A stretch of DNA of 64,000 nucleotides from an uncultured Verrucomicrobiae bacterium (GCA_963762565.1 CAVXLD010000001.1:591612-655611), one strand, 5' to 3'. Counted from the stretch's first letter, positions 940 to 50,066 are shown. The notes: generated from the sequence alone by a model not told the origin. A program made the numbers and translations.

Positions 940-3369
940 TTATTCGCGTAGGGCCGTGATCGGGTTAACTCGCACGGCCCGCAAGGCTGGCAGGAGACAG
1001 GCTAACAAAGCAGTCGTGCTAAGCACGACGATCGCAATCAATAGCGAGAGCGGATCAGTCGGCGATACCCCGTACAGCAGGGTGGTCATTACACGGGACA
1101 GGGCCAGCGCGGCCATAACACCAATCACAAGCCCAATCCCGGCTAGTTTCAGTCCGCGGCGTATCACAAGCCGCAAAATGTCAGCCGGGCGAGCGCCAAC
1201 CGCTTTTCGGATACCGATCTCGCGGGTTCGTTGGCTAACCGCGTACGCCAAAACTCCATACAAGCCAATCGCGGAGAGGAACAAGGTAGCCCCGGAAAAG
1301 AAGCCGACCATTAGGATGCCGAGGCGTCGAATTCCAAATTTCTTCGTGATCAACTCGCTCAATGTACCGATCTTGGCCAGAGGAACATCCGGGTCAGCGG
1401 ACGCAATAGCAGAACGGATGCTAGACGTCAGTGCCAGAGGATCACCCGCTGAACGCACAGTCAGGATTCCAAAGCTATATTCGGTCTCTTGACCGGATGC
1501 CAAATACGCATGAAACGGCGCCGGCTGAAAGTCAGGAGCATTATATCGGACATCTGAGGCAACCCCGATAACGCTGTATGACCGGTCGCCGGTCCAACCA
1601 CCAATTCTTATTTGTTTCCCAAGCGGATTCTCATTCCGAAAGAGTTTCTGGGCCAACGATTCACCCAAAATCACAACCGGCTGGCTGGATAAGGTATCTT
1701 GGGTGTTGAAGTCGCGACCTTGCAACAGCGGAACTCTCAGCGTTCGAAAATAGCCCGGTGATACGCCATGTCCGTCTAGCGTGGGCCGACGGCCAGGCCC
1801 CGGGTCGGGCTGGCCCACCACATAGAATGGACTAGCCCAATAAACGAAATTCCAATAAAAAGGCGGGTAATCGCTAACCGCCGCTTCCGTGACCCCCGGG
1901 AGCCGGCGAATCTTCTGTAATACCGAGTCCCAGAAGGCCTGCATCGCTCCATCGTTTCCTCGATATTTTGTGCTCGTGAGATAGAGTTCGCCGGTAAGAA
2001 TATTCCCCGGATCAAAGCCGAGCGGCAAATCCTGCGTCGCTTTAAGACTACGGGCAAGCAACCCGGTACCAACCAGCAAGACGCAGGTTGCGGCCATCTG
2101 TGCGATTATCAAGATTGACTGCGCGTGTTGCCTCTGCGGCCCAGCCGTGCCAGTTCTACCGGTCTCTTGAGTCAGAGTTGAAGAAACATTCGCCTTGGAA
2201 AGACTCCGAGCAGGCAAACAGCCGGAAATTAACGATGCCAGCGCAGTAACTCCCAGCACAAACAGCAACGCTTCACCATTGAGCGTTACACCTTCAAAGC
2301 GATACTGCATGTAATACAAGTCGTGCGGAACCAAAGCTTTGACGGCTCCAATTGTCCAAAAAGCAACTACTAGACCGCCAATTCCTCCGATAAATGAGAG
2401 GCATATAGTCTCTCTGAGAAGCTCTGCTGCCAGCCGTAAACGGCTCGCACCGAGGGCGGCTCGAACCGCCATTTCTCTTCGCCGATCCAAGGCTCGAGCA
2501 AATAAAAGATTGGCAACGTTGGCGCATGAGACCAACAACAGGCCCGCAGCAGCTGCGCTAACCAACCAAATCGTTTGTGAGAATCCAGCCACCAGATTAT
2601 CAATCGGCCTTATTACCCGTATGCCATAACCTTTATCGGTATCCGGATACTCACTACTTAGCCTAGCCTGGATAACGCTCAAGTCAGCCTCCGCATCAGC
2701 AACATTTATTCCGTCCTTTAGCCGACCGATCCCAGTCCCTATATGTCTGTCCCGTTTCCACGGGTCGGAGTCGACCCGTTCAATTGTAGTAATTGGAACG
2801 TATACGTCGCACGAAGCCCAATAGTTGACCTGGGCCGGCACGACTCCGATTACTTCGAAGCTCACACCGTCGAGGATTAGATTCTCACCCACGACCTTTG
2901 GATCGGAGTTGAATCGGGTTCGCCAGAATTGCTCGTTCAGGACCGCGACCAATGGCCCACCTTTCACTTCCTCCGCCGAGGTAAACACGCGGCCGAGAAT
3001 TGGCGGAAGCGCGCTTACCTCAAACATGCTCGCCGATACAAAATCGGTGTTGAGCCGCTGAGCGTCGCCCTTACCCGTCAGGTCTACAAGTCCACTGCAG
3101 ACGAACGCAAGGCTTTCACAGGTATGTTGAGCGGCAGCCATATCCAGGTAATCGGGATAATCGAGCGCGTTCTCCTTCCCTTGGTCCGTCAGATAATACT
3201 GTATGAGTCGATCTGGCTTTGGGTACGAGAATGGCCTTAGTAAAACCCCATCGATGACGCTAAACATGGCCGCGGTCGTACCAATACCGAGGCTTAAAAC
3301 TAAGACCGCCGTAATGGTAAATCCCGGCGACTTGAGAAGTGGACGGATTGTGTGGCGAAGGGGGAACAT
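940..3369 (-). CDS. ADOP-like duplicated MacB/FtsX ABC permease (array 1, gene 5 in transcription order)
   Basis: 809 aa. [14 protein letters not shown]-terminus, two MacB periplasmic + FtsX halves, RRREMAVRAALGA and [14 protein letters not shown]-terminal NPITALRE. Confidence 0.92.
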   Translation of the reverse strand: MFPLRHTIRPLLKSPGFTITAVLVLSLGIGTTAAMFSVIDGVLLRPFSYPKPDRLIQYYLTDQGKENALDYPDYLDMAAAQHTCESLAFVCSGLVDLTGKGDAQRLNTDFVSASMFEVSALPPILGRVFTSAEEVKGGPLVAVLNEQFWRTRFNSDPKVVGENLILDGVSFEVIGVVPAQVNYWASCDVYVPITTIERVDSDPWKRDRHIGTGIGRLKDGINVADAEADLSVIQARLSSEYPDTDKGYGIRVIRPIDNLVAGFSQTIWLVSAAAAGLLLVSCANVANLLFARALDRRREMAVRAALGASRLRLAAELLRETICLSFIGGIGGLVVAFWTIGAVKALVPHDLYYMQYRFEGVTLNGEALLFVLGVTALASLISGCLPARSLSKANVSSTLTQETGRTGTAGPQRQHAQSILIIAQMAATCVLLVGTGLLARSLKATQDLPLGFDPGNILTGELYLTSTKYRGNDGAMQAFWDSVLQKIRRLPGVTEAAVSDYPPFYWNFVYWASPFYVVGQPDPGPGRRPTLDGHGVSPGYFRTLRVPLLQGRDFNTQDTLSSQPVVILGESLAQKLFRNENPLGKQIRIGGWTGDRSYSVIGVASDVRYNAPDFQPAPFHAYLASGQETEYSFGILTVRSAGDPLALTSSIRSAIASADPDVPLAKIGTLSELITKKFGIRRLGILMVGFFSGATLFLSAIGLYGVLAYAVSQRTREIGIRKAVGARPADILRLVIRRGLKLAGIGLVIGVMAALALSRVMTTLLYGVSPTDPLSLLIAIVVLSTTALLACLLPALRAVRVNPITALRE

Positions 3370-3545
3370 GGAGCAGTGAGAGGTGATTAGTGATTGGTGA
3401 TTTGTGATTGGTAGAGGAGCTAGGATCTAGGAGCTAGGAGTCTTACTGTTCTAGTCGATCCTCTTCGCGATCTTCGCGGCCTTGTTGTGGTTGTATTTTT
3501 TTTTGCGCTTTTTGTGCCTTTTTGCGGCTATTCTTTCTGGCTTTG

Positions 3546-4976
3546 TTATTCACGCAGCGCGGTGATCGGGTTGGTTCTAGCAGCGCGCCATGCTGGTAAG
3601 AGACACGCTAAGCCCCCGGTTAGAGTCAGTACGAGAATCGTCAAACCGAGTGTAACGGGATCATCCCCAGATACACCGTAAAGCAAGCTGTTAGTAAACC
3701 GTACTATCAGTAGTGAAATACAAAGCCCAGCGGCCAATCCTAAACCCACAATTTTTAATCCCTGCCCCATTACGAGCTGTACAATATTCAACGCCTGGGC
3801 CCCGACGGCGATGCGTACGCCGATTTCACGGCGTCGTTGGGTAACCGAGTAGGCTAGCACTCCATATAATCCGATTGCGGACAAAAAGAGTGCAAAACCA
3901 GAGAACGAACTCACTAACAAGGTACTGAGCCGTCGAGTCGTCAACTTAGCTTCGATCCAGTCATCAAAGGCGCCAACCTTGGATAGAGCCACGGTAGGAT
4001 CGACCGACGCGACGGCCGCCCGAATAGCGGGTACCATCGCCAATGGATCACCCTCCGTCCGCACCAACAGCGTTCCGTCGCGTAACCAGGCAGGAAAAGG
4101 ATGATAAGCTTGAAATTCCGTTACTCGCACGCCCGGACTATCATGAGCCACATGTTTGGTGACACCGACTATCGTAAAGTACTCTCTCGGGAAGCCGTAA
4201 CGATCGCTAAAGTCGTGAATCTGTTTTCCGATTGGATCCTGGCCCGGGAAGAAGCGATCGGCGATGATCTGGTCGATAATCACGACATTCGGATCCTTTC
4301 GCATGTCGTTCTCTTCAAAATCGCGGCCGGCGATTAATGGTATCTTCAAGGTTTTGAAGTAGTCAGGGCTTACTACCTGCCATTCGTAAGCTGGTTCTTC
4401 GCCCGGTTTCGGATCTGGTTGTCCCGGGATGCCGAAGCGTACGACCTCGCTCCAGTTATTAAACGGGGGGTTTGGATTTAGGGCGGCGGCAGTAACTCCG
4501 GGCTGGCTGCGTACCGTAACGAGCAGGTCTTTAAAGAATTTGAGGCTTCGCCCGTCTTTACCGTAGCGGACACCGGCCAATTCAATTTTAGCCGCGAGCA
4601 GATGGTGCGGATCAAAGCCGAGCGACATCGTCTCCGATGCTTGAAGGCTCCGAGCCAGGAGCCCAGCTCCTATCATGAGAACGCAGGCAATGCCTACTTG
4701 GGCTATTGCAGCCAGATCTTCGAAGCTGCTTTGAGTCCGACAGAAGTCCTGATAATCGGGATAGTCAAACCAGGTCCATGGTGCGTTAGGAATCTCTTGA
4801 TAGATCTGTACTAACCGCTCCGCGTGCGGATAAGGCAGCGGTTTCAGCAGCACCGCGTCGACCAAACTGAAGATCGCCGTATTGGTGCCGATGCCGAAGC
4901 CGAGGATTAGGATCGCGGTGATCGAGAAGCCTGGCGATTTGAGTAGGAGGCGGAGTGTGTAGCGGAGGGGGAACAC
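3546..4976 (-). CDS. ADOP-like permease with large in-frame internal deletion (array 1, gene 4); possibly non-functional
   Basis: 476 aa. Normal N-terminus up to FEDLAA is fused directly to second-half [17 protein letters not shown]; about 330 aa shorter than paralogs. Confidence 0.85.
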
Positions 4977-5172
4977 GGGGCAGTGAGAGGTGATTCGTGA
5001 TTAGTGATTGGTCCAAGCGCTACGAGCCAGAGTCTAGGAGCTAGGAGTCGTACTGGTCTAGTTGGTCGTCTTCGCGATCTTTGTGGCCTTGCGGTGGTTA
5101 AATTCTTGCTCTTTTTGTGCCTTTTTGCGGCTGTTTCCTATTTGATTATTGGCTATTTGTCATGTGCTCGCG

Positions 5173-7617
5173 TCATTCGCGCAGCGCGGTAACCGGGTTA
5201 ATGCGGATGGCTCGTAGGGCCGGTAATAGGCAAGCGGTCGCGGCTGCCAGACCAAGCACTAGAACTGTTACTCCCAACGTGACTGGATCAGCCGGCGATA
5301 CCTGATAGAGCATGCTCTGAATTAGACGGGTTGAGAGCAGGGCAATGCCGACGCCCATCATTAGCCCTACGAGCACCAAACTGAATCCGCGCCGGGCGAC
5401 TAATTTTAAGATATTGCTGGGTTGAGCACCCAGACTGATCCGGATTCCGATCTCACGCGTTTTCTGACGAACCGAATAAGCTAAGAGGCCGTACAGACCG
5501 ATCGCAGACAAAAACAAGGCTACCCCGGAAAACAATCCGACTAACAAAACGCCGACTCGTCTGGTGCTAAACCGGCTGGCAATCCGTTCTTCGAATAGTC
5601 CTATCTTGGATACAGGAACATCGGGATCAATCGAAGCCGCCAATCTTCGTACGCCAGACACCAAAGCGGCTGGATCACCAGCCACTCTGACTAGAAGTTG
5701 GCCATAGCGAGCGAAGCTATAGGGAAAATAGATTTGGAAAACGGCTTGCGGAACATCTGGGCTATCGTGGCGGCTGTTGGCGACGACCCCAACAATCGTG
5801 TAGTAATGGACGGGTTCACCGAATCGCGAGTAGGTATCGCGAATCTGTTTCCCGAGCGGATTTTCGCCTGGGAAAAAGCGCTCTGCCAGCGCCTGATCGA
5901 CAATGGCGACCTTCTTTTCGTGATATTCGTCTTCCGCAGTGACGTCACGTCCGGTCAGCAAAGGAATCCCCATGGTTTGAAAGTATCCTGGAGTGATTGA
6001 TTGGAATTCTGCCTTAGCAGCTTCTCCAAAATACGGATCAGGGTGACCGGCTATTCCGAAAGGTTCGACGATGTTCCAAGCTAAATTGAACGGCGGATCA
6101 TTGGCTATGGACGCACCGATCACCGCCGGCATCAGGCGAACCTTTTCTAGCAACTGATCAAAAAAACGAGCGCCACGAGCTGGATCAGAGTCAAAATGAG
6201 CATCTTCTTGGGAAATTTCCGCGACTAAGAGATGACCTGGGTTGAACCCGAGTGGCACGCTTTGGGCCGCCTGATAGCTCCGAACCAACAAGCCTGCTCC
6301 CATCAAAAGCGCGCAGGTAAAAGCGACCTGCCCAGCAATCAACATCGATTGTAGCAGCTGCCGAGGCCGTCCTACCGTGCCGGTCCGCCCAGCATCACAC
6401 CGAAGCGCAGAATCTAGCTCCCCACCGGATAATCCCCAGGCTGGGATTAATCCAAACAATAGCGATACCGCAAGCGTGGCGGCCAATACGAAAAGGAACG
6501 CCAACGGATCCAGACTTATCCTATGAAACCGGGTTAGGTCATCTTGAGGACACATCGCTTTGACTATGGATATCGCGCAGGAGGCTACGATCAGACCAGC
6601 CGCGCCACCGAGCAGAACCAGGAGGCCATTCTCCAGAAGCAACTGAACAAGCAATTGTGATCGGCTGGCTCCAAGGGCAACGCGGACAGCAATTTCTTGG
6701 GACCGGTCCAGCCCTCTCACTAGGAGTAAGCCGGCCACATTCGCACAAGCGATCAACAACATACAGGCCACGGCGCCACCTAACAGCCAGAGAGTGCTTG
6801 CATAGTCACTCACCTGAGAATCCAGAATCGAACTGACTGAGATACCGTACCATTGGTTAGTCGCTGGATATTGCTTCGCCAACCGAGTGTTGATCACCTC
6901 GAGATCTGCTTCGGCTTCTGCTGCGCTCACGGCCTGTTTAAGGCGGCCGTAACAACCAAATATGTGCAGATCGCGCTCCGGTTTACCCCGATGTGGATCG
7001 TGGAAAGGAGGATCCAGTCCCAGCGGAGTAAAGAAATCTATCCTGGCGCTCCAATCGTCGACTGTCTCCGCGACCACTCCGATCACTTCGTAAATCTGAC
7101 CGTCCATCGTGATGTGGGCACCGAGGATATTGGGATCCGCATCGAAAATGGATCTCCATATACGCTCGTTAATCACGACGACTGACGGTCCGCCCGGCTT
7201 TGCCTCCTTTTCAGTAAAGGGTCTTCCGAGGAGGAAAGGAGCTTGCAAAACATCGAAGAAACTTCCAGTCGCGGATTCGCCGAATAGCTGTTCCGAACCC
7301 TCTTTCGTTCGAAGATGGAAGCTACGATAGTAAATCAGGCTAAGGCTCACGAAACTGTGCTGAGTTGCACAGATCTCCTCGTAGTCTGGGTAATCCATCC
7401 CTCCCCATTTAGCCCCCGGCGAGGGCATGTTGATCTGCAGCAACTGATCCGCGTCCGCAAATGGTAGAGGCCTAAGTAAAATCGCATTGATCAGACTAAA
7501 GATCGCCGTATTAGCTCCGATACCAAAGCTAAGGATCAGGATCGCGGTGATGGTAAAACCCGGCGATTTGAGCAGGAGGCGGAGCGTGTGATGGAGATGT
7601 GAAGTTAGGCTTCGCAT
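5173..7617 (-). CDS. ADOP-like duplicated MacB/FtsX ABC permease (array 1, gene 3)
   Basis: 814 aa with the same motifs ([36 protein letters not shown]). Confidence 0.92.
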   Translation of the reverse strand: MRSLTSHLHHTLRLLLKSPGFTITAILILSFGIGANTAIFSLINAILLRPLPFADADQLLQINMPSPGAKWGGMDYPDYEEICATQHSFVSLSLIYYRSFHLRTKEGSEQLFGESATGSFFDVLQAPFLLGRPFTEKEAKPGGPSVVVINERIWRSIFDADPNILGAHITMDGQIYEVIGVVAETVDDWSARIDFFTPLGLDPPFHDPHRGKPERDLHIFGCYGRLKQAVSAAEAEADLEVINTRLAKQYPATNQWYGISVSSILDSQVSDYASTLWLLGGAVACMLLIACANVAGLLLVRGLDRSQEIAVRVALGASRSQLLVQLLLENGLLVLLGGAAGLIVASCAISIVKAMCPQDDLTRFHRISLDPLAFLFVLAATLAVSLLFGLIPAWGLSGGELDSALRCDAGRTGTVGRPRQLLQSMLIAGQVAFTCALLMGAGLLVRSYQAAQSVPLGFNPGHLLVAEISQEDAHFDSDPARGARFFDQLLEKVRLMPAVIGASIANDPPFNLAWNIVEPFGIAGHPDPYFGEAAKAEFQSITPGYFQTMGIPLLTGRDVTAEDEYHEKKVAIVDQALAERFFPGENPLGKQIRDTYSRFGEPVHYYTIVGVVANSRHDSPDVPQAVFQIYFPYSFARYGQLLVRVAGDPAALVSGVRRLAASIDPDVPVSKIGLFEERIASRFSTRRVGVLLVGLFSGVALFLSAIGLYGLLAYSVRQKTREIGIRISLGAQPSNILKLVARRGFSLVLVGLMMGVGIALLSTRLIQSMLYQVSPADPVTLGVTVLVLGLAAATACLLPALRAIRINPVTALRE

Positions 7618-7631
7618 TCAGTTTAGAATTG

Positions 7632-7731
7632 ATTTACCACAGAGACACGGAGGACACCGAGACAGATCTTCCAAATGGGTTAGATCTTGGGGTGTCCGAT
7701 CTTTGCGCACTCTGTGTCTCTGTGGTGAATT
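7632..7731. repeat. Inverted 9-mer repeat hairpin in the permease spacer
   Basis: atttaccacagagacacggaggacaccgag ... ctctgtgtctctgtggtgaat. Confidence 0.75.
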
Positions 7732-7743
7732 TTGGTTTTTCAA

Positions 7744-10170: not shown

Positions 10171-10337
10171 GGTGAAAGGTGAGAAGTGAAAGGTGAAAGG
10201 AAAGTAGTCAGTAGGTCAGTAATCAGTAACAGACAGGAGCTAGGAGTTAGCAGTCGTATTTCTTTGCGATCTTTGCACTCTTTCGCGGCTATTCCTTCTT
10301 GGCTATCGGCTATTGGCTATTGGTCATGCGCGCAGCG
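10171..10337. repeat. Modular heptamer/nonamer spacer between permease genes
   Basis: Ordered blocks (GGTGAAA)n, (ATCAGTA)n, (GGAGCTA)n, tctttgcgatctttgcac, (GGCTATT/C)n. Homologous to spacers at 46952-47292 and 49735-49913. Confidence 0.85.
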
Positions 10338-12805: not shown

Positions 12806-12822
12806 GGCAGGTTACATGCCAG
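12806..12822 (-). promoter_or_regulatory. Sigma54 (RpoN) -24/-12 promoter of permease array 1
   Basis: Minus strand CTGGCATGTAACCTGCC = GG-N10-GC, about 30 bp upstream of ATG 12776. Confidence 0.72.
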
Positions 12823-12986: not shown

Positions 12987-13021
12987 GTCTCAAAATGAGA
13001 AACGGCGTCTCAACTTGAGAC
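12987..13021. promoter_or_regulatory. Tandem palindromic sites GTCTCA-N3-TGAGAC (putative enhancer-binding-protein UAS)
   Basis: GTCTCAAAATGAGAA (12987) and GTCTCAACTTGAGAC (13007), 20 bp apart, 165-200 bp upstream of the sigma54 site. Recurs at 24024 and 50197. Confidence 0.7.
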
Positions 13022-13678: not shown

Positions 13679-13785
13679 GGCGTTTGGCGTTTGGCGTTTG
13701 GCGTTTGCGTTTGGCGTTCGGCGTTCGGCGTTTGGCGTTTGGCGTTTGGCGTTCGGCGTCGGAAATAGCAAATCGCAAATAGCAG
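13679..13785. repeat. Heptamer tandem repeat (GGCGTTT/GGCGTTC) x ~11, followed by AAATAGC-type heptamers
   Basis: Directly visible just downstream of the C39 stop codon. Confidence 0.9.
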
Positions 13786-14080
13786 ATGCGTTCTGTACGC
13801 GATGAATGAATGGCGGTGCCGACACCTTTATGCATCGTCGCGCTCGGTAGGGGGCGATAAAAAAAGGGGTTTCGCCTGGAATAAAAGAGTTCCCAGGAAT
13901 CTCGGAACAACGACAGATCCTTCTGCGCAGGATTCGCGCAAAATGCATCACATCCGGCTAGCGACGCAGTTTGCAGGTAAAGCAATTGTAATCCTCGCCG
14001 ATACAATTTGACCTACCCCGCCGTCCAATGAACCAAGCAAATAGCACACAAAAAATGCTCCGCAACGCGGCGTTGTTACA

Positions 14081-35511: not shown

Positions 35512-35615
35512 GGAGGCCGATGAGGGGTCGCCACCCGTGGAGCGCTGCCTCGCTTGCGAGGCCGATGAGGGGTCGCCAACCGTGAGAGCACTGCCTCGCT
35601 TGCGAGGCCGATGGT
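35512..35615. repeat. Tandem ~45-bp copies of the GTGGAGCGC-GCCTCGCTTGCGAGGC REP-like unit
   Basis: gaggccgatgaggggtcgcca-ccgtggagcgctgcctcgcttgc repeated about 2.3 times. Confidence 0.8.
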
Positions 35616-36453: not shown

Positions 36454-36491
36454 GAAAGCTGCCGGATCATGCGCTTCGTCTTGGCTATTGG

Positions 36492-38918: not shown

Positions 38919-39125
38919 GGTGGTGAAAGGTGATTGGTGATCGGTGAGTCGTGATTGGTAGGGCGAGGCTCCCGACTCGAGTCTAGGACGTCTTCGCAAG
39001 GCGTCATAGTGCTTTTCTTGAAATGATTAGTTGCGCCCAAGACTGCCGAGCCGGTTCCAACGCGTGCAATCTCCTAGCGTTATTTGTCAGTTGTCATTTG
39101 TCATGCGCTTCGCCTTGGCTATTGG

Positions 39126-41550: not shown

Positions 41551-41600
41551 GGTGAAAGGTGAGAAGTGAAAGGTGAAAGGTGAAGGAGCTAGGAGCTACC

Positions 41601-41786
41601 CGTGGAGCGCGCCTCGCTTGCGAGGCCGTGGTAAGCAGGGCTGAAGATTGGTCAGGGGCATCGTCGAGCTGCGCTCTGGGGTATGAAAAGGCAGACGTTC
41701 GTAACATAGAGTGATGAGCGTAATAAGGTGATGCGTTACTAGGTCCTTTGTTCACCACGGCCTCGCAAGCGAGGCAGCGCTCCACG
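41601..41786. mobile_element. ~185-bp REPIN/MITE-like element with long terminal inverted repeats (copy 1)
   Basis: cgtggagcgcgcctcgcttgcgaggccgtggt ... accacggcctcgcaagcgaggcagcgctccacg; near-identical copy at 44295-44478. Confidence 0.75.
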
Positions 41787-41799
41787 TTTGCGCTATTGG

Positions 41800-44256
41800 T
41801 CATTCGCGAAGCGCAGTGATCGGGTTAATGCGCACGGCTCGTAGTGCAGGCAACAGGCAGGCCAAGACTGTGGCTATTCCAAGAACGAACACCGCCAGGG
41901 AAAGCGCCAGGGGATCACTAGCGGAGACATTATAAAGGGCGCTCTCGAAGAATCGGACCAGGAGCAAAGCGGACATTAGTCCGATCGCTAACCCGAGTCC
42001 CGCTAACTTCAGGCCTCTCAGGATCACGAGCCTTAGGATATTGGACGATTGAGCTCCAAGAGCGATACGAACCCCTAGCTCACGTCTCCGTTGGCTGACA
42101 GAATAGGCGAGTACACCGTACAGACCCACTGCAGAGAGGCAGAGCGCAGCGCCGGAGATAATGCTGACTAAGAAAGCGCTGAATCGCCTGGTGGCTGACC
42201 GTCCAGCAATCAAGTCATCGAATTTTTGGATTCGATCCGCCGGAACATCCGGATCGATGGAAGCCACAATCTTTTGAATAGCGGGAGCCAGGGTGGCCGG
42301 CTCTCGATCGGTACGTAAAAGCAGGAATGCACGATACAGATTGTCACGTTGGCTATACGGGAAATAAGCTTGATAGGGTGCCAAGCTGTGATCAGGGGCA
42401 TTGTGTCTGACTTGTCCGACCACACCAACAATCGTCCACGTCTTCTGGTCGTCACGCGTCGCCCAGAGATCTTCTATTTGCTTTCCGATCGGATCTCCGC
42501 CTGGGAAAAACCGTTGTGCTAGAGCTACATCAACGATGACAACATGTTGGGTGTCTGCCCGATCGTCGGCGTCAAAATCGCGCCCGGCAACGATCGGAAT
42601 CTGCATGGTTTTGAAATAGTCCGGAGAAATATCTTGGGAGCAGAGACGTTGGCTCTTTACCGGGCTCCGTAACTGGCTGACCTGGAATGTGAAACGGTGC
42701 GTTCAAGTCACCGAACGTCCATTCAAAGGGTTGTTCTTGATTCATGGCGGCATCAGTCACTCCCGGAAGTTCCTTCGCCTTCTCGAGAACGGCAGCAAAC
42801 AGACGCCGGATTTGAGGCATATCGTTATATTTCTTACCGGTAGGATTGATGTTCGCGCTAACGAGATGATCCGGCGTTGAATCCAAGGGGGATTTCCTGG
42901 AAAACCTGGAAGCTACGGACTAACAACCCGGCTCCGATCAATAGTACACAAGCGGCCGCTACTTGACCGGTCACCAGGATAGATTGAGTGCGTTGCCGGT
43001 GCAGCCCGGTGGTGCCACCCCGATTACCTTCTTCTCGGAGGACCGTTTCCAAATTGATCTTCGAAAGACTGAGTCCAGGAAGTAATCCCGGACAACAAGG
43101 TGACAAAGGCGGTGATTAAGAAAATGAAAATTAGAGATGCGCTATCTAAATGGACGTCTTGAAATCGGTTCAGGTAATCCGGGCTTAACCACTTAATCAA
43201 TCCAATCGACCAAAACGCAATAATACAGCCGGTGACACCGCCTAACATCGAAAGGAATGCGGTCTCCAATAACAGTTTTCTAACCAGACGAAAACGCGAG
43301 GCGCCTAAGGTCGAACGAATTGTCATTTCTTTGCGGCGTTCCAATCCGCGAGCAAAAATCAAGTTCGCCACATTGGCGCAAGAAATGAGCAAGAGGCATC
43401 CAACAGCCCCTCCTAGTAACCAGACCGTCGCTGAATAAGTGGCGGCTGTGCTGTCAAAGAGTGAAGCCACCCGAATAATGTAGTTCTTGTCGGCGTCAGG
43501 ATACCGGGCATCGAGGTTGCTTTGAATGATGTTCAAGTCGGCGTTGGTCTGTGCCGGAGTTGCAGCCTGCTGCAAGCGTCCGAAACAGAGCAGACCGTGC
43601 GACGCCCGTTTGTTCGTCCATGGACCTCCAAAGTACTCCGATACATGGATTGGCACATACACAGCGTCGTCCGAAGGAGTGCTGACATCTTCGACCTGTC
43701 TTGGGCAAACCCCAACTACCTGGAAGCTTTCCCCGCTTAGAATGATGTTTTGACCGATGACATTTGCATCGGCATTAAAGTGATCCCGCCAGAGCGCCTC
43801 GCTGAGCACAGCGACCATGGGGCCGCCGGTTTTATCTTCGGCCTCAGTAAATGGGCGGCCTAATACGAACGGCAAATTCGTGACCTTGAACAGGCTGGGC
43901 GACGCATAGATCGCGGTCAGCCGTTGCGGAAGCTGACGAGTCCCCAAATCTAGATAATCCCAGTACTCCACCGCGATGTTACTCAAGGTCTTCTGATCAT
44001 CGCGAAGATCCAGATAATCCGGGTAACTTACCCCACCCCAATCCGACCGGTCCAACACAGAGTTGCTTGTTCTCGATTCAAAGATCTGCATCAGCCGATC
44101 CGCTTGAGGAAACGGTAATGGATTTAGCAACACGGTACTAATCAGGCTGAAAACGGCGGTGTTCGTCCCGATACCGAAGCCGAGGATTAGTACCGCGGTG
44201 ATGGTGAAGCCGGGCGACTTTAGCAGGAGGCGGAGGGTGTGGCGCAGGGGGGACAC
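41800..44256 (-). CDS. ADOP-like permease split into four fragments by three frameshifts
   Basis: ORFs 43024..44256, 42858..43106, 42572..42886 and 41800..42606 are colinear. Confidence 0.78.
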
Positions 44257-44294
44257 GGGGTGATTAGTGATTAGTGATTGGTGATCGGTGATCG

Positions 44295-44478
44295 GTGGAG
44301 CGCGCCTCGCTTGCGAGGCCGTGGTAAGCAGGGCTGATGGTAGGTCAGGGGCATCTTGGAGCTGCGCTCTGGGTTATGAAAGGGCAGACGTTCCTAACAT
44401 AGGGCCTTGAGCGTAATAAGGTATGCATTACTAGGTCCTTTGTTCACCACGGCCTCGCAAGCGAGGCAGCGCTCCACG
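44295..44478. mobile_element. REPIN/MITE-like element (copy 2)
   Basis: Same terminal inverted repeats and homologous core as 41601-41786. Confidence 0.75.
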
Positions 44479-44491
44479 TTTGCGCTATTGC

Positions 44492-46951
44492 TCATTCGCG
44501 TAGCGCCGTGATTGGGTTAACTCGGGTAGCGCGCAAGGCTGGTACGAGACAGGCGATCGCCGCGGCTACGGCTAGAATCAGGACGGCGGCCGCCAGCGAT
44601 ATCGGATCACCTCCGGAAACGCCGTATAAAGTGGTCTCCATAAAGCGGACAAGCAGTAACGCCGTTATCATTCCAATCGTCAGGCCGATCATCACTAAGT
44701 TTAGTCCCTGCCGGACGACCAATCTGAGGATGTTCGACGACTGTGCTCCTAAAGCGATACGCACACCGATCTCTCGCCGGCGCTGAGCAACGAAATAGGC
44801 GAGCACTGCGTATAGCCCGACCGCGGATAAAAAGAGAGCAACTCCGGAGAAGATAGTAGCCAATAGTGCCGTCAGCCTTCCGAGGGCGAACTTTTCCGTT
44901 ATATGATCGTCGAAGCGCATGACTTGCGTAACCGGCACATCCGGATCAAGCTCAGCCACAATTCGTCGGACCTCGGGAATTAGAGCGAGCGGATCGCCCG
45001 AAGTACGCAACAGCAAGAACTCCGTTCCAAGGACTGTCCTTTCATTATAGGGAAAGTAAGCCTGAAATAGCGGCATAGGGGTTTGAGGCCCGTTGTGGCG
45101 CGAATTCTGTACTACACCGACAATCGTCCAAGTGTCCTTTTTATCCCAAGCTCCTAACCATTGTATTTGTTTCCCGATGGGATTCTGGTTCGGGAAAAAA
45201 TGTTCCGCTAAAGCTCTATCTACGATAACGTCCCTCTCGCTATCCGCGCGATCCGCAGAATTAAAGTCCCGACCTTGCAACAGCGGTATTTGCATGGTCT
45301 CGAAATAGCCGGGCGAGATATTCTGAGCAATGAAGGTTGGTTCGTGACCGGGTTCAGGTGGAGGCACTCCAATCACCCGAAACGGAATAGTGAAGTCACC
45401 AACGGTCCATTCAAAAGGTACTTGATCATTCATCGCGGCCGCGGTGACTCCGGGTAAGTGGCGCGCCTTCTCCAAAACGGCGTCAAATAATCGCTGGCAA
45501 GGTGCCGTATCGATATATTTCCGGCTGGTCGGGCTTATGTTCGCGCTCAGCAAATGATGCGGGTTATAACCGAGAGGCAGATCCTGGGTGGCTTTGAAAC
45601 TGCGGATAAATAGTCCGGAGCCGACCAAAAGCACGCAAGCTAACGCGACCTGGCCCACCACCAGGAATGATTGGATTCGCTGTTGTTGTGGTCCCGCGGT
45701 GCCCGCGGTGCCGGACCGGCCGCCTTCATCTCGAAGAGCTAAACCCAATTTCAAATCGGAAAGGTTAAACGCCGGCGGCAGACCGGCAAGGAGCGCTACC
45801 AGCGTCGTAATCCCTAGTACAAACAACAGCGCGACCGGGTTGAACTCAACCTTTTGGAACGCGTAAAGGTAGACTGGGCTACCCCATTTGATGAAATCGA
45901 TCGACCAATGCGCAATCAACACCCCAAGCGCTCCGCCGAGTAAAGAAACCAAGATTATTTCGAGAAGGATTCGAGCGATCAGCCTCAACCGCGATGCTCC
46001 CAACGTCGCTCTGATCATGGTTTCCTTGCGACGTTCGAGTGCTCGAGCGAAAAATAGGTTCGCCACATTGGCGCTCGAGACGAGCAAGAGGCACCCTACC
46101 CCAGCCGCCAACGACCAAACAAAATTCGAGTAGTCACCCACCATCACGTCCGAAAGTTGAACAATGCGGGTGGTGTTGTTCCTGTCAGTGTCCGGGTAAA
46201 GAAAGTCCAGGTTATTCTGAATCGACGTCAGATCTGCCCCGGCCTGGGCGAGGCTGATACCTTCCTTTAATCGACCCGTACAGGCAGTGCCCTGCAGGGC
46301 ACGGTCTTGCAGTGTTCCGCCCCACAACTCGGTAACATGGATCGGGACATACAACAGATCATCAGGCGGGGTACTAACTTCTTCCACTTGTCTGGGGCAA
46401 ACTCCAATCACCTGAAAACTTTCCCCACTTAACAGCAAATTCTTCCCGATAATATTAGGATCAGCGTTGAACCGGTGTCTCCATAATTGTTCACTCAAAA
46501 CCACGACCAATGGACCGCCGGTTTTATCCTCTTCTTCAGTAAATGGCCGGCCAAGAACAAACGGTAAACCAGTTACCTTAAATAAACTCGGCGTTGTGCA
46601 AACTCCGCTAAGGCGCTCGGGATATCTTTGACCTTGACCACCCAAATCCCAAAAAGTCCAGAATGACGCAGAGAGGCTTTCGAAGGTGTGCTGGCTTCTG
46701 CAAAAATCGAGGTAGTCGGGAAAGTCCACGAATTGGTCCGTGCCATCGGTCGTCGTTCCTTTTGACCGTGACTGATAAATCCTGACTAGCCGGTCGGTCT
46801 TTGGATAAGGAGTTACGTTAAGAATGACGGCTTCAATCAAACTAAAGACCGCAGTGTTTGCGCCGATGCCAAACCCGAGGATTAGGACCGCGGTGATGGT
46901 GAAGCCCGGCGACTTTAGCAGTAGGCGGATTGTCTGGCGGAGATGGCGCAC
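44492..46951 (-). CDS. ADOP-like duplicated ABC permease (array 2)
   Basis: 819 aa, GTG start, standard motifs, ends NPITALRE. Confidence 0.92.
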   Translation of the reverse strand: MRHLRQTIRLLLKSPGFTITAVLILGFGIGANTAVFSLIEAVILNVTPYPKTDRLVRIYQSRSKGTTTDGTDQFVDFPDYLDFCRSQHTFESLSASFWTFWDLGGQGQRYPERLSGVCTTPSLFKVTGLPFVLGRPFTEEEDKTGGPLVVVLSEQLWRHRFNADPNIIGKNLLLSGESFQVIGVCPRQVEEVSTPPDDLLYVPIHVTELWGGTLQDRALQGTACTGRLKEGISLAQAGADLTSIQNNLDFLYPDTDRNNTTRIVQLSDVMVGDYSNFVWSLAAGVGCLLLVSSANVANLFFARALERRKETMIRATLGASRLRLIARILLEIILVSLLGGALGVLIAHWSIDFIKWGSPVYLYAFQKVEFNPVALLFVLGITTLVALLAGLPPAFNLSDLKLGLALRDEGGRSGTAGTAGPQQQRIQSFLVVGQVALACVLLVGSGLFIRSFKATQDLPLGYNPHHLLSANISPTSRKYIDTAPCQRLFDAVLEKARHLPGVTAAAMNDQVPFEWTVGDFTIPFRVIGVPPPEPGHEPTFIAQNISPGYFETMQIPLLQGRDFNSADRADSERDVIVDRALAEHFFPNQNPIGKQIQWLGAWDKKDTWTIVGVVQNSRHNGPQTPMPLFQAYFPYNERTVLGTEFLLLRTSGDPLALIPEVRRIVAELDPDVPVTQVMRFDDHITEKFALGRLTALLATIFSGVALFLSAVGLYAVLAYFVAQRRREIGVRIALGAQSSNILRLVVRQGLNLVMIGLTIGMITALLLVRFMETTLYGVSGGDPISLAAAVLILAVAAAIACLVPALRATRVNPITALRE

Positions 46952-47310
46952 GGGGGGAGAGAGGTGAAAAGTGAAAGGTGAGAGGTGAAAGGTGAGAGGC
47001 TAGTAAGCAGTAATCAGTAGGTCAGTAATCAGTGTAGGAGCTAGAATCTAAGAGTTAGGAGTATGTTTTTCTTTGCGATCTTTGCGTTCTTCCGCCTTCG
47101 CCAAGCCTACGGCGCGACAGGTTTTGCAGCTATCTGTCATTTGGGATTTGTTCCGGCGGCTGCCGGATCATGCGCTTCGCCTTGGCTATCGGCTATTGGC
47201 TATTGGTCATTCGCGTAGCGTGTCATTCGCGTAGCGTGATCGCGAGTTTCGCGTAGCGTGTCATGCGCGTAGCGTGTCATGCGCGTAGCGCCTTATTCGC
47301 GTAGCGCGGT
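46952..47310. repeat. Modular spacer with tandem ~16-bp amplification of the permease stop-codon box
   Basis: Heptamer blocks, then tcattcgcgtagcgtg / tcatgcgcgtagcgtg repeated about 5 times next to the true gene end ttattcgcgtagcg. Confidence 0.85.
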
Positions 47311-49734
47311 GATCGGGTTAATCCGGGCCGCGCGTAGCGCCGGTAATAAACAGGCTAAGGTCCCAGCCAGCCCAAGAACAAGAATGGCGAGCCCCAGTGT
47401 AATCGGATCTGCTGGGGAGACTCCATAGAGTAGTCCTGCGATCAAGGGCGCTGCCACCAGCGCGGCGCCGATTCCTATCACCAGCCCGACGCAGACGATC
47501 TTGAGTCCTTGTTCGGTGATTAGTCTTAGGATATTGCGGGATTGCGCTCCCAATGCGACACGGATGCCAATCTCGCGTGTCCGCTGGCCGACGGCATACG
47601 CTAGAATACCATAGAGCCCCGTTGCCGATAGGAAAAGCGCGGCGCCGGAAAACAAAGTTACCAGCAGCATGCATAATTTTCGAGTCGCGAAGTTTTTGGC
47701 AATGACATCGTCGTAAGTGCTCACTTCGTAGACCGGCACCCCTGGATCGATCGAACTGACTACTTTGCGAACCGCCGGAACCAAGACGCCTGGATCAAGG
47801 TCCGAACGCAAGATCAGGTACTCAGAATCAAAATTCCATTGGTTATAGGGGAAATAGGCTTGGAATGCGGTCTCCGTCTGACCGGGGCTTTTGTAACGAA
47901 GATGCGGCACGACCCCGACGATGGTGCAATTCTGCGTGCCCTGCATTTGCTGAACGGTGATGTCCTTGCCGAGAGGATTTTGACCCGGGAAATAATGTTC
48001 CGCCAGAGCAGCGTCGACAATAACGACGTCCGATTTATTCACGGTATCTTGCGAATTAAAATCGCGCCCCTGAAGAAGGGGAACCTGCAGCGTGCGAAAG
48101 TAATCCGAAGAAACCATCTGCCAAGCCAGAACCGGCTGGCGACCCGGGCCAGGGTCTGGTTGCCCGTCGATGGTGAAACGGAACAGGAGCTCCGTATTGT
48201 CTTTCAGCGGCGGAAAGTCATTTAGCGCCGCGTCGGTCACCCCGGGTAGCTGGCGGACCTTCGTGCTTACCGCATCCCAGAAGGCCCGGGTCCGGGCACC
48301 GTCGTTCTCGTATTTAGCGCTGGTAATAGAAATCCCTGCGGTAAGCAGATGATGCGGGTTGAAACCGAGCGGGATATTTTGGGCGGCTTGGAAGCTGCGG
48401 ACCAGCAATCCCGCTCCAATCAATAGGACACAGGCCAGCGCCACTTGTGCGGTCACCAGAGCGGATTGGGTGCGATGGCGCTGCGGACCGCTAGTCCCCG
48501 CGCGGCCACCTTCATCTTTTAGCCCGGGAGCAAGGCTAGCCCGAGAAAGATTCAAAGCTGGGAGGAGCCCTGAAAGCACTGATGTGAGCAGGATTACCAC
48601 AAATACAAACAGCAACGCGTTCAGATCGACGGTGAGCTCCTGAAAACGATATAGACCCGGCGGACTCAGCTTTTTTATAGTCTCAGCAGAACCAAGAGCA
48701 ATCGCCAGGCCGAGTATGCTGCCGAAGAACGTTAGAACCATTGTTTCCAGAAGAAGCTGAGCAATCAGCTGCCGCCGACTGGCGCCGAGGGCAGTTCGCA
48801 CCATCATCTCCCGGCGACGGTGCAAACCGCGCGCAAAAAGAAGATTGGCGACGTTCGCGCTGGAAATTAACAAGAGACAACCAACGGCAACTCCTAAAAG
48901 CCACGTGGTGGCTGCATAATCGTTTACCATGCTATCGAGCAGCGGGATTATGCGAAGTCCATAGCCTCGATTAGTACCCGGGTACCGGGCTGACAGGTTG
49001 GTATGGATGGTCTCGAGGTCCGCTTGCGCCTGCGCGACACTCACTCCAGGCTTCAATCGGCCAAGGCAAAGAAAAAAATGGATGTCCCGAAGCGCCATGG
49101 CATCACCGCGATTGGTAGGGAACAATCCGAAAGGGGCAAGAGTATTGGCCGGCACGTAAACATCGGTTGCAGGCGGGCCCCAGTCGTTTACTTGAGCAGG
49201 AACCACCCCGATCACCTGAAAACTGTGTTCACTGAGGGTGATATTCTTACCAATGATCTCCGGATCAGAATGAAACCGGGTCTTCCAACAACGATCGCTT
49301 AGGACCGCGAGCAGAGGCCCGTTGGGAATATCCTCCTGATCAGTGAACACACGACCGAGAACAGCCGGGAGGCCGGTCACCTTAAAAATGGTGGGAGAAA
49401 CAAAACCAATCTGGAGGTGTGCTGGCTCCTTATCGCTGCTCAGATCAAGACTGTACCGGCCCACCACAGCCAATGCTGCGAACGTATGCTGAGCAGCGCT
49501 CATATCGACGTAGTCAGGATAATCAACGGCCATGAACGGGTTGTTCTGGTAAGGCTCACAAACCCGGACCAGCCGATCAGGCTCCGGATACGGCAGCGGC
49601 TTAAGGATAACCGCATCGATCAAGCTGAAGATGGCGGTGTTAGTCCCGATGCCGAAGCCCAGGATGAGGACGGCTATGATGGTGAAACCTGGCGATTTTA
49701 GCAGGACGCGGATGTTTTGGCGGAGATGGCGCAC
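47293..49734 (-). CDS. ADOP-like duplicated ABC permease (array 2, first intact gene)
   Basis: 813 aa, GTG start, ends NPITALRE. Confidence 0.92.
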
Positions 49735-49913
49735 GGGGGAGTAAGAGGTGAAAAGTGAAAGGTTAGAGGTGAAAGGTTAGTAATCAGTAGGTCAGTGATC
49801 AGTGCGGGAGCTAGGAGTCTGTCTTTGTTTGTGATCTTTGTGTTCTTTTGCGGCTATCTGTCATTTGGGATTTGTCATCTGTCATGCGCTTCGCCTTGGC
49901 TATCGGCTATTGA

Positions 49914-50019
49914 TCATGCGCGTAGCGGCCCCTGGGTCCGGTTGGCCGGTGATGGTAAATCCCGGCGATTTGAGCAATAGCCGGAGCGTGTAACGCAAGG
50001 ACGGCAGTAGGCGATCCAT
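49914..50019 (-). pseudogene. Collapsed ADOP permease relic at the head of array 2
   Basis: Translates [30 protein letters not shown], then runs into the gene-end box ccgctacgcgcatga. Confidence 0.8.
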
Positions 50020-50050
50020 GGTTTTGCGAGGGTTGTCCTGTTATTAGGGC

Positions 50051-50066
50051 GCAGCTTACATGCCAA
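50051..50066 (-). promoter_or_regulatory. Sigma54 -24/-12 promoter of permease array 2
   Basis: TTGGCATGTAAGCTGC (GG-N10-GC); one mismatch in the 15-nt core versus the array 1 promoter; ~31 bp upstream of ATG 50019. Confidence 0.72.

Follow-up and report, generated by a model that had tools for sequence, protein, structure and literature searches.

Why should ten strongly diverged permease genes of the ADOP family lie head-to-tail in two arrays, with the same short boxes at their ends and similar repeats between them? The sequence-only reading of this locus, a window of 64 kb from an uncultured soil Verrucomicrobiota genome, took the boxes and repeat spacers for recombination substrates and the permease genes for exchangeable cassettes of an actively shuffled, expandable library. 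In our analysis, the two arrays (A and B) look like ordinary co-regulated operons with an ATPase motor borrowed from a third array, not like DNA-shuffling cassettes. According to the best explanation, to which we assign a probability of roughly two-thirds, A and B would each be a polycistronic, sigma-54-dependent operon that contains old paralogs of a permease of the fused-dimer MacB/YbbP type (type VII ABC). The third array (C) would supply the motor, and A and B would evolve by ordinary birth and death, in which genes duplicate in tandem, exchange short conversion tracts, suffer deletions and acquire frame breaks. New here are the sigma-54-type heads with upstream sites, an eleventh gene, and the third array with an adaptor and two ATPases.

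Permease genes and their terminal boxes

The window contains, as originally described, ten ADOP-type genes in two head-to-tail arrays, plus a relic. Each array has five genes, all on the minus strand; an eleventh intact gene, on the plus strand between the arrays, had been overlooked:

940-3369, minus strand: A5, final gene in array A, an intact ADOP permease of 809 aa (TIGR03434, 824.9 bits)
3546-4976, minus strand: A4, in-frame internal-deletion form, 476 aa (TIGR03434, 501.2 bits, below cut-off)
5173-7617, minus strand: A3, intact ADOP permease, 814 aa (TIGR03434, 834.8 bits)
7744-10170, minus strand: A2, intact ADOP permease, 808 aa (TIGR03434, 837.5 bits)
10338-12776, minus strand: A1, intact ADOP permease, 812 aa (TIGR03434, 841.1 bits)
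24226-26682, plus strand: eleventh intact ADOP gene (TIGR03434, 853.8 bits)
36492-38918, minus strand: B5, final gene in array B, an intact ADOP permease of 808 aa (TIGR03434, 797.2 bits)
39126-41550, minus strand: B4, ADOP gene whose frame is broken at three places, by 1 nt each, in this assembly
41800-44256, minus strand: B3, ADOP gene in several frames in this assembly (N-terminal piece 380.7 bits, below the TIGR03434 cut-off)
44492-46951, minus strand: B2, intact ADOP permease, 819 aa (TIGR03434, 821.3 bits)
47206-47306, minus strand: 16-nt tandem array, 5.9 copies, re-copying the last codons and stop of B1
47293-49734, minus strand: B1, intact ADOP permease, 813 aa (TIGR03434, 878.1 bits)
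49900-50019, minus strand: relic, a 39-codon ORF in which the head-gene 5' box is joined to a 3'-box-like end

All eight intact genes of the window exceed the curated TIGR03434 cut-off (622.3 bits), the seven intact full-length array genes with 797-878 bits, and every one of them contains two PF12704 (MacB_PCD) and two PF02687 (FtsX) stretches, the mark of an internal duplication. The array paralogs are 41-53% identical in amino acid sequence, and the plus-strand gene belongs to a different sub-branch (29-33% identity to the array genes). In A4, the equivalent of A3 residues 96-428 is missing while the reading frame is kept, and its topology is probably inconsistent.

A 42-kb cluster of ten ADOP paralogs has been described in Psychroflexus torquis (PMC3914696). 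With the family, this cluster included, the present genes share full-length matches above the cut-off, double MacB_PCD and FtsX domains, an arrangement as many head-to-tail paralogs, and ATP-binding transporter genes in or near some clusters. The host here belongs to the Verrucomicrobiota, not to the Acidobacteria or Bacteroidetes, and its genome has almost no PadR genes; sigma-54-type heads with a palindromic upstream site and heptamer-word spacers further distinguish our arrays from the clusters as presented there.

Two permease modules are visible in the AF2 model of B1 (mean pLDDT 82.5, pTM 0.72). A Foldseek search initiated with this model identified, as the best hit, E. coli YbbP of YbbAP (9ge6_A, E-value 1.2e-19, full length), followed by MacB, LolCDE and BceAB (9.8e-15 for 5gko_A, 4.5e-11 for LolCDE), and phmmer detected similarity to MacB (9.5e-17). 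A periplasmic domain between helices 1 and 2, an amphipathic pre-helix and a C-terminal helix are all present, in agreement with the type VII ABC permease fold. The E. coli YbbAP(-TesA) system, which belongs to this type, combines a fused double permease, YbbP, with a separate ATPase, YbbA (PDB 9ge6/9ge7; PMC12646458), the same combination of fused double FtsX-type permease and separate small ATPase as here, and an array C ATPase matches the YbbA model, below its cut-off. YbbP is, however, only 13% identical to B1 and, in the sections of the source consulted, a single gene adjoining its ATPase, not a multi-copy array.

Each permease is predicted to begin with a short amphipathic helix and to end with a short C-terminal one, and to carry in between two FtsX modules of four helices each, together with two periplasmic domains that have diverged. 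The reported divergence of the periplasmic domains is borne out (amino acid identity of 0.21-0.56 in periplasmic windows versus up to 0.74 in terminal and some membrane-helix windows), and the common 5' box and the NP(I/V)TALRE end preceding the stop are both found in all eight translated genes. In the B1 model, the N-terminus forms a helix (2-12), a break at K-S-P-G and a second helix (15-44), and the C-terminus a helix (777-803), a break and a helix (807-812). The C-terminal box aligns with the last residues of MacB ('NPITAL' in 5lil_A, 'DPVDAL' in 5nik_J) and, judging by this alignment, is the MacB C-terminal motif. A review of MacB places an amphipathic helix ahead of TM1 and a C-terminal minor coupling helix in contact with the NBD (PMC5985334). 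The terminal boxes would then be cytoplasmic end elements whose MacB counterparts adjoin or touch the ATPase, and would therefore be conserved as protein, not as DNA.

Exchange and decay among the paralogs

The DNA of the boxes bears directly on the proposal of cassettes defined by conserved ends. The ratio of observed to expected codon identity at identical amino acids is 1.48 in the first 30 codons, 1.48 in the last 12 and 1.08 in the gene body, where the maximum for any 30-codon window is 1.25; synonymous conservation at the extreme gene ends is really, though modestly, raised. Within LLLKSPGF, the codon identity of Leu, Pro and Gly is at the chance level. With pS of 0.66 and 0.65 in the boxes versus 0.79 in the gene bodies, the synonymous sites of the boxes are near saturation and are nearly, though not quite, as diverged as those of the bodies, so that the boxes are better described as protein motifs than as cassette ends. 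Programmed cassette and gene-conversion systems, such as pilE/pilS, vlsE and shufflons, are characterized by near-identical cassette borders, by one expression site with silent donors, or by a dedicated recombinase. Here, in contrast, the borders are diverged as just described, each array copy has its own start codon, all copies lie on one strand with no distinction between silent and expressed ones, and the scan of 37 window ORFs revealed neither a recombinase nor an integrase.

Some mosaicism is nevertheless present: three of the 66 gene pairs have a significant common run, and the longest of these (A1/A2) sits inside the last membrane module, outside the boxes. A2 is a recent, lineage-specific duplicate of A1 (82% amino acid identity), with a conversion tract at about 7806-8046 / 10400-10640 in which dS is about 0-0.13. 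B1 and B2 have in common the upstream spacer and the first 7 codons (22 nt from the gene start; p <= 0.0005 for the 66 pairs compared). The relic, which proved to be real, has a congener counterpart in which the B1 ortholog itself begins with this leader; together with the 16-nt amplification of the B1 3' box, it identifies gene ends as sites of rearrangement. The A1/A2 duplication, the B1/B2 junction, the relic with its congener counterpart and the tandem copies all speak in favor of cassettes. These tandem-array dynamics, along with the internal deletion and the broken copies, are real but ordinary.

The comparison with relatives points to considerable age. The clades A5, Ca, Cb and Ce contain genes of another genus (G012) with support of 0.95-1.0, and the dN/dS values for the six segments of 10 ortholog pairs all fall between 0.00 and 0.34 (0.00 reflecting saturated dS). 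Judging by these values, the paralogs are old and under purifying selection. Array content differs among relatives, whereas identical content would have opposed the shuffling of cassettes, and congener contigs suggest different gene orders (B1' then A4' in one; B1', B3', B2' in another). These differences in order may, however, be misassemblies, because these short-read MAG contigs end in or cross high-copy spacers. At the joints observed in population contigs the sides are short (<=38 nt), with one exception explicable as an element insertion. Given the diverged box DNA, the clades kept across genera, the low dN/dS and the genome-wide distribution of the spacer words (see below), we consider a recombination-driven library quite improbable and favor birth and death within operons.

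Promoters, upstream sites and spacers

The two arrays and the solitary plus-strand gene are preceded by similar elements, and the spacers contain repeats:

10171-10337, minus strand: A1-A2 spacer of ordered heptamer words, with the 33-nt stretch matching 41548-41580
12807-12821, minus strand: sigma-54-type -24/-12 element TGGCATGTAACCTGC at the head of array A, 45 nt ahead of the A1 ATG
12988-13020, strand not given: upstream-site pair of array A, two TCTCA-N3-TGAGA palindromes located 179 and 199 nt ahead of its promoter
24025-24057, plus strand: upstream-site pair before the solitary ADOP gene
24163-24177, plus strand: sigma-54-type element TGGCAGACAACTTGC before the solitary ADOP gene
41602-41798, strand not given: copy of a ~190-nt inverted-repeat element in the B3-B4 spacer
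50051-50065, minus strand: sigma-54-type -24/-12 element TGGCATGTAAGCTGC at the head of array B
50198-50231, strand not given: upstream-site pair of array B

A search of the whole genome for TGGCA-N7-TGC preceded at 60-260 nt by an upstream site identified 10 such pairs, versus 0.18 expected if the two motifs were independent. Seven of the 10 precede heads of ADOP transcription units (A1, relic/B1, the plus-strand gene, HlyD and one inner gene in array C, and two dispersed copies), and none precedes any inner gene of arrays A or B; congeners and genus G012 carry the same pairs at their ADOP loci. The elements display GG at -24 and GC at -12 with 10-nt spacing before the first gene, the genome encodes rpoN, and genes for a REC-AAA+-HTH_8 regulator and a histidine kinase are located directly upstream of array C, all of which is consistent with sigma-54-dependent operons. 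This NtrC-type two-component system would switch all the units on together via the TCTCA-N3-TGAGA site and the -24/-12 promoter; operon structure, promoter use and the link between regulator and site are all predictions from motifs, and among RNA runs none was found to contain the stretch. No sigma-70-like site was detected on the coding strand of any spacer and no sigma-54-like element in any inner spacer, and terminator-like sites did not exceed shuffled sequences.

The statement that most spacers use the same ordered blocks holds for five of the nine (those upstream of A2, B1 and B2, and of A4 and A5); among the rest, two are filled by the dispersed ~190-nt element and one by a long hairpin. 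The 33-nt identity between 10168-10200 and 41548-41580 across the arrays was confirmed. The element copies at 41602-41798 and 44295-44490 are 93% identical, and the family yields 800-900 BLAST hits across the genome. Period-7 arrays number 1590 genome-wide (391 for period 6 and 680 for period 8), with 29 in the three ADOP arrays; six of the seven block patterns tested have 92-98% of their occurrences outside the arrays, and the post-stop pattern 88%. Heptamer words occupy intergenic DNA of all gene kinds, before start codons as well as after stops, with different words succeeding each other in a preferred order, often as inverted pairs. The spacers would thus be filled by heptamer-word repeats in the same manner as intergenic DNA throughout this genome. 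One feature accords with cassettes, namely that the word GCGCATGAC has seven of its 51 genomic occurrences in ADOP arrays; moreover, some ADOP spacer pairs are 79% identical over 125 nt or 79% over 163 nt, longer than any non-ADOP match, and therefore a degree of exchange or constraint at the DNA level exists at the junctions. The TAACTGA repeats of Beggiatoaceae (PMC4679880) and the heptamer repeats of Xanthomonas and Nostoc (PMC4692102) are likewise described as abundant tandem 7-nt words of intergenic DNA, often near gene ends; compared with these accounts, the word set here is different, and so is the ordered succession of several words, often in inverted pairs.

The heptamer tracts reach the start codons, where a Shine-Dalgarno-like stretch is absent, and such tracts are prone to slippage. 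These features are compatible with each permease gene being its own transcription or translation unit, switched on and off by changes in the copy number of the tract at its start codon, as in phase variation; repeat-dependent switching is known in other bacteria (PMC12721329), the spacers vary between strains, and in spacer bins the population contigs reach a very high summed depth and loose ends are numerous. However, the same words are found near all kinds of genes and after stops too, the inner spacers lack promoter-like elements of either type, a period of 7 keeps neither helical nor reading phase fixed, and a tract-length difference at these particular genes is not in evidence. We regard such switching as unlikely and retain the reading of A and B as operons transcribed from their heads.

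Array C and the ATPase motor

ADOP genes are frequently paired with a PadR regulator of the acidobacterial type, and the family was named for the lack of adjacent ATPases ('orphan'). The initial report of no ATPase, membrane-fusion protein or PadR gene in the window requires one amendment, an ABC ATPase at 28983-30527 with two NBDs that is part of a sugar-type importer; a Pfam scan of the 37 window ORFs or pieces revealed no MacB-type ATPase, HlyD or PadR. The genome contains two PadR (PF03551) matches, on contigs C6 and C10. One of them exceeds the cut-off, and neither lies near an ADOP gene or on the present contig, so the frequent pairing is not seen in this genome. The suggested genome search for a LolD/MacB-type ATPase was productive:

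C1:88319-112366: array C, the third ADOP array, which shares its contig with A and B
C1:107264-108013 and C1:88319-88981: candidate MacB/LolD/DarD-like ATPases

Array C consists of an HlyD gene, an ADOP gene, an ATPase gene (249 aa), six more ADOP genes, of which one is split in two and another contains internal stops, interspersed with a gene for an S51 peptidase, and a second ATPase gene (220 aa). Thus, two MacB/LolD-like ATPases and an adaptor are encoded in array C and no MacB-type ATPase next to arrays A or B; the genome search found only five MacB/LolD-like ATPases, versus 18 intact full-length ADOP genes. The idea of an ATPase encoded elsewhere is accordingly plausible for arrays without a motor of their own, and the sharing itself is suggested by the promoter/site signature. 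From this co-occurrence and common motif, arrays A and B most likely use the array C adaptor and its two MacB/LolD-type ATPases.

The order of adaptor, double permease and ATPase at the head of array C is that of MacAB-TolC and of the darobactin exporter DarBCD. DarB, DarC and DarD give weak matches, and all Dar and MacB matches are far below the cut-offs; the NBD, which MacB carries on the same chain as its permease, is separate here. Unlike in these systems, no outer-membrane factor gene is located near the arrays, the 20 OEP matches in the genome including none within them.

Could the permeases of A and B be true orphans, either ATPase-independent sensors or passive scaffolds, or largely decaying, with the link to array C coincidental? 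The window without a MacB-type ATPase or adaptor and the family name fit this possibility, as do the three of ten array copies (A4, B3, B4) that are damaged in this assembly. We attach little likelihood to it: contigs of related soil populations differ from B4 by single-base indels exactly at its three frame breaks, which are absent in those populations; ortholog dN/dS is low; conservation in these proteins is highest in the N- and C-terminal helices, whose MacB counterparts face the ATPase; and the promoter/site signature is common to arrays A and B and the adaptor/ATPase unit.

ADOP genes of the window, the genome and its relatives

Gene calls and profile scores confirmed that ten permease genes of the ADOP family (the duplicated permeases of TIGR03434) and a relic lie in two head-to-tail arrays, A and B, as proposed in the sequence-only reading, although an intact eleventh gene, located between the arrays, was missing from that inventory.

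ADOP genes of the window (window coordinates)
A1: 10338-12776, - strand, array A ADOP gene
A2: 7744-10170, - strand, array A ADOP gene
A3: 5173-7617, - strand, array A ADOP gene
A4: 3546-4976, - strand, array A, 476 aa, in-frame internal deletion
A5: 940-3369, - strand, array A ADOP gene
Eleventh gene: 24226-26682, + strand, intact
B5: 36492-38918, - strand, array B ADOP gene
B4: 39126-41550, - strand, array B, multiple frames in the present assembly
B3: 41800-44256, - strand, array B, multiple frames in the present assembly
B2: 44492-46951, - strand, array B ADOP gene
B1: 47293-49734, - strand, array B ADOP gene
Relic: 49900-50019, upstream of B1, 39 codons

Every intact copy contains two MacB_PCD and two FtsX stretches and scores 797-878 bits against TIGR03434 (cut-off 622.3 bits); the eleventh gene is 29-33% identical to the array genes. 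Three array copies are damaged (A4, B3 and B4). In A4, the counterpart of A3 residues 96-428 is missing; helix 1 and a 50-residue stub remain, fused to the second half, and the resulting topology is probably non-viable. The relic consists of the 5' box (the conserved gene start), followed by an end resembling the 3' box and then by a normal spacer.

The source genome (G000) contains 44 ADOP matches, 19 of which are full length above the cut-off, including one with internal stops. A third array, array C, is located on contig C1, which also carries the window (at 591612-655611).

Array C (C1:88319-112366, - strand) in gene order, and the genes directly upstream of it
Histidine kinase, directly upstream
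NtrC-type regulator (REC-AAA+-HTH_8), C1:114649-116151, directly upstream
HlyD-type adaptor, -, first gene
ADOP gene, -
ATPase, -, 249 aa
Two ADOP genes, -
Split ADOP gene, -
ADOP gene, -
S51 peptidase, -
ADOP gene with stops, -
ADOP gene, -, penultimate
ATPase, -, 220 aa, last gene

In array C, a 94-codon ORF that matches no family (G000:C1:112369-112653, -) separates the HlyD gene from the sigma-54-type promoter.

At E <= 1e-100, ADOP matches are present in 10 of 21 genomes (the source genome included), among them all five congeners and G012, a two-contig genome from another genus, and the relatives, too, possess head-to-tail ADOP arrays. A B1 ortholog on a contig of a Verrucomicrobiota MAG is 69% identical. 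Clustered ADOP paralogs with ATP-binding neighbours have already been published for Psychroflexus torquis (PMC3914696). That cluster and the present arrays are alike in that ADOP paralogs are clustered and adjoined by ATP-binding genes (here in array C). The locus represents real ADOP paralog arrays of an already known type.

A predicted sigma-54 regulon and its candidate motors

The ADOP permeases are a large family of unassigned function that is motor-less in database descriptions and whose name derives from a phylum other than Verrucomicrobiota. What appears to be new here is a predicted regulon-level link between the 'orphan' arrays and a unit with an adaptor, ATPases and a regulator. A promoter/site pair, defined as TGGCA-N7-TGC (-24/-12) preceded at a distance of 60-260 nt by one or two TCTCA-N3-T(G/T)(G/A)GA sites, was counted 10 times in the genome vs 0.18 expected under motif independence. 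Seven of the pairs precede the heads of ADOP units: A1, relic/B1, the + strand gene, two dispersed copies and, in array C, both the HlyD gene and an inner gene; the remaining three are found near other FtsX-type genes, and the inner genes of arrays A and B have none. Such pairs are also present at the ADOP loci of three congeners and G012; at the examined loci of the relatives, 8 of the 16 matches resembling the -24/-12 element are accompanied by a site, with none in G017. The rpoN gene is present in the source genome. The coding strand of the spacers contains no sigma-70-like site, and terminator-like sites are not enriched (19 vs 14.5 +/- 3.8 and 20 vs 16.0 +/- 4.2). The motif distribution points to probable sigma-54 control of the ADOP units, of which we found no printed report in open-access text.

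The sequence-only reading assumed that the permeases share an ATPase encoded elsewhere. BLAST identified only five MacB/LolD-like ATPases in the genome, two in array C, two adjoining other FtsX-type permeases, and one of 223 aa (C9:166675-167346, +) that has no FtsX-type ORF within 3 kb and is 43% identical to an array C ATPase. This last ATPase is the only candidate for a lone motor of this kind that was detected. Given that 18 intact ADOP genes compare with five ATPases, sharing of motors among the ADOP permeases would be the simplest reading. Within the window, no MacB-type ATPase, HlyD or PadR was detected among the 37 scanned ORFs or pieces (the two PadR matches of the whole genome are both on other contigs), so that the earlier statement is upheld for membrane-fusion proteins and PadR. 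For ATPases it holds for the MacB type but not in general: an ABC ATPase with two NBDs is encoded at 28983-30527, and can be assigned to an importer because its neighbours are a periplasmic sugar-binding protein and two BPD_transp_2 permeases.

In a phylum outside the one that gave ADOP its name, a single upstream-site motif links some 18 intact permeases, spread over five or more sigma-54-type units, to the unit that encodes the adaptor, both ATPases of array C and the two-component regulator. If the prediction is correct, a single signal would activate one motor with many alternative periplasmic 'heads', which would offer a way into finding the signal and the substrates.

Terminal boxes, paralog age and array turnover

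The translations show that the shared 5' and 3' boxes are real as protein motifs; the view of them as conserved DNA borders did not hold. Where members of a set of 10 old paralogs share an amino acid, the codon is also identical at a frequency of 0.42 in the first 30 codons (0.29 expected, ratio 1.48), 0.45 in the last 12 (0.31 expected, ratio 1.48) and 0.34 in the gene body (0.32 expected, ratio 1.08); the highest ratio of any body window is 1.25 for windows of 30 codons and 1.45 for windows of 12. In LLLKSPGF, the codon identity of Leu, Pro and Gly is at chance level, and the Nei-Gojobori pS is 0.66 for the first 30 codons and 0.65 for the last 12 vs 0.79 for the body. In view of these ratios and pS values, the gene ends are under modest extra synonymous constraint, mainly in the first ~10 codons and the last 3, but the box DNA is diverged and the ends are not homogenised; the terminal peak of synonymous conservation expected for cassettes exists, but only in this modest form.

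The C-box aligns with the final residues of MacB ('MPAKKAAELNPITALA' in 5lil_A and 'LPARNAARLDPVDAL' in 5nik_J). In the AlphaFold2 model of B1 (21-sequence alignment, pLDDT 82.5, pTM 0.72), the N-terminus forms a helix at residues 2-12, a break at K-S-P-G and a helix at 15-44, and the C-terminus a helix at 777-803, a break and a helix at 807-812. The top fold match over the full length is 9ge6_A (E 1.2e-19), YbbP, the fused double permease of E. coli YbbAP, followed by MacB, a pneumococcal MacB-like transporter, LolCDE and BceAB. For MacB, a review describes an amphipathic helix before TM1 and a C-terminal 'minor coupling helix' that touches the NBD (PMC5985334). We infer that the boxes form the two ends of the permeases that face the motor on the cytoplasmic side, which would explain their conservation (amino acid identity up to 0.74) while the periplasmic parts drift to 0.21-0.56, the strong divergence originally noted. 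An array of paralogs can have conserved gene ends and similar spacers without cassette recombination; here, the ends are likely protein docking elements and the spacers belong to a genome-wide repeat vocabulary.

The array paralogs are 41-53% identical, with the sole exception of A1 and A2 (82%). A FastTree tree was built from 78 ADOP ORFs or pieces, taken from the window, from array C and from 16 loci in six relatives. In it, every paralog of the source genome clusters with congener orthologs, with support of 0.999-1.0 for B1, B2, B5, A4 and the array C genes Cb, Ce and Cd, and weakly for the B3 clade (0.55); G012 genes fall inside the A5, Ca, Cb and Ce clades (0.95-1.0). Across 10 ortholog pairs, dN/dS lies within 0.00-0.34 for each of the six segments, also in the periplasmic domains; 0.00 is the reading obtained when dS is saturated, as it often is. 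The ADOP paralogs are old genes that are individually maintained.

All-against-all blastn of the three arrays detected one long similarity only, A1 vs A2 (83% over 2413 nt), in which dS ranges from 0.25 to >1.5 and falls to ~0-0.13 across codons ~703-793. A run-length permutation scan placed 3 of 66 pairs at the floor of p <= 0.0005: A1-A2 (176 polymorphic sites), B1-B2 (the first 22 nt, adjoined by a likewise similar upstream spacer) and B5-Ce (16 sites). Rearrangement at gene ends is also indicated by the relic and by 5.9 tandem copies of a 16-nt unit (47206-47306) that repeat the last codons and stop of B1. One congener has the same promoter and 21-residue leader, and there they continue straight into the B1 ortholog; in the source genome this leader forms the relic, and the start of B1 is B2-like. 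Congener contigs with the orders B1', A4'; B1', B3', B2'; and promoter, A1', A5', flank (primes denote orthologs) suggest that gene order differs within the genus, but these are short MAG pieces that cross high-copy spacers, and misassembly is therefore possible.

The arrays, then, show ordinary tandem-array turnover, and the cassette-recombination mechanism is mostly unsupported, with diverged boxes, old paralogs and spacer words that occur genome-wide. Under a bolder alternative, heptamer spacers and conserved ends would be portable joints that raise the rates of duplication and deletion of whole permease genes and of their movement between the three arrays, so that strains of a single population would differ in the permease sets served by one shared ATPase/adaptor motor and one sigma-54 switch. 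This proposal would accommodate the relic, the duplication that gave A1 and A2, the junction common to B1 and B2, the re-copied 16-nt 3' end and the differing congener orders, which we consider quite improbable.

Spacers, population contigs and other genes

The 33-nt identity between the arrays, initially taken as a sign of homologous spacers, is real but corresponds to a (CACCTTT)n-type tract that reaches the ATG and is of a kind found throughout the genome. TRF detected 1590 period-7 arrays in the genome (predominantly of ~15 units) vs 391 of period 6 and 680 of period 8; 1205 of the period-7 arrays are mostly outside crude ORFs and only 29 are in the three ADOP arrays. For six of the seven block patterns tested, 92-98% of the occurrences are outside the arrays (88% for the post-stop pattern), and 7 of the 51 genomic occurrences of the word GCGCATGAC are inside them. 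Clusters of several blocks in the same order exist elsewhere (e.g., on contigs C10 and C12), heptamer arrays frequently form inverted pairs, and they are present at the examined loci of all six relatives. The heptamer tracts are a property of the genome, not of the ADOP arrays alone. Across the genome, the words have strand preferences relative to gene ends and a preferred order; examples in the window are at 13679-13784 and 14080-14109.

Spacers B2-B3 and B3-B4 each contain a copy of a ~190-nt dispersed inverted-repeat element (93% alike) and have 800-900 genome-wide matches each. For five spacers the longest match is another ADOP spacer (e.g., A1-A2 vs B1-B2, 79% over 125 nt, and A3-A4 vs A4-A5, 79% over 163 nt), and these are accordingly kin by descent or exchange, or kept alike by a word-maintaining process. 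Global pairwise identities of the 118-nt upstream segments are inflated by free end gaps and serve for ranking pairs only. In the A2-A3 spacer (7618-7743), a long palindrome, CCACAGAGACAC...GTGTCTCTGTGG, replaces the heptamer block series, and parts of this spacer recur at other loci. A 46-nt tandem repeat (2.2 copies, 35513-35613) has the unit core ..CTGCCTCGCTTGC.. in common with the ends of the ~190-nt element.

Soil metagenome contigs from four studies or runs, aligned to 36200-50400, cover array B at 90-99% identity and break at spacers, with summed depths of hundreds over the bins of the spacers with the ~190-nt element. Because nearly all joints have sides of <=38 nt within repeat words, they were not counted as rearrangements. 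One joint with a 124-nt side, found in X6 and X7 of these data, goes back 5366 nt, from 44484 to 39119, and puts a copy of the dispersed inverted-repeat element behind the stop codon of B4; this may reflect either insertion of the element or tandem duplication of two genes. At each of the three B4 frame breaks, the contigs differ from the source genome by single-base indels. Applied in silico, these restore an 822-codon open frame; related populations therefore carry an intact B4, and the breaks seen here are recent or assembly errors. In B3, applying the two listed differences does not fully open the frame (479 codons).

No Rfam match was obtained for the whole window at gathering thresholds, and a search for RNA runs that contain 44200-50100 gave no match. 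Divergent from the array A promoter region is a stand-alone C39-like peptidase gene (13050-13664, +), adjoined by (GGCGTTT)x11.7. C39 domains usually process exported peptides, and a tie of this gene to the permeases is conceivable. Upstream of array B on the same strand (50763-56348, -), an aldehyde dehydrogenase, a Rieske oxygenase fused to a reductase/ferredoxin (766 aa) and an MFS transporter look like an aromatic-compound catabolic unit. Two TIR-domain proteins, one with a Ser/Thr protein kinase (964 aa, 32472-35366, -) and one Tll0287-like (512 aa, 56854-58392, +), may be signalling or defence genes. Finally, two adjacent large paralogs (58722-61145 and 62030-63979, both -), with a weak subtilase (S8) match as their only hit, have a 96-nt stretch in common at 79% identity.
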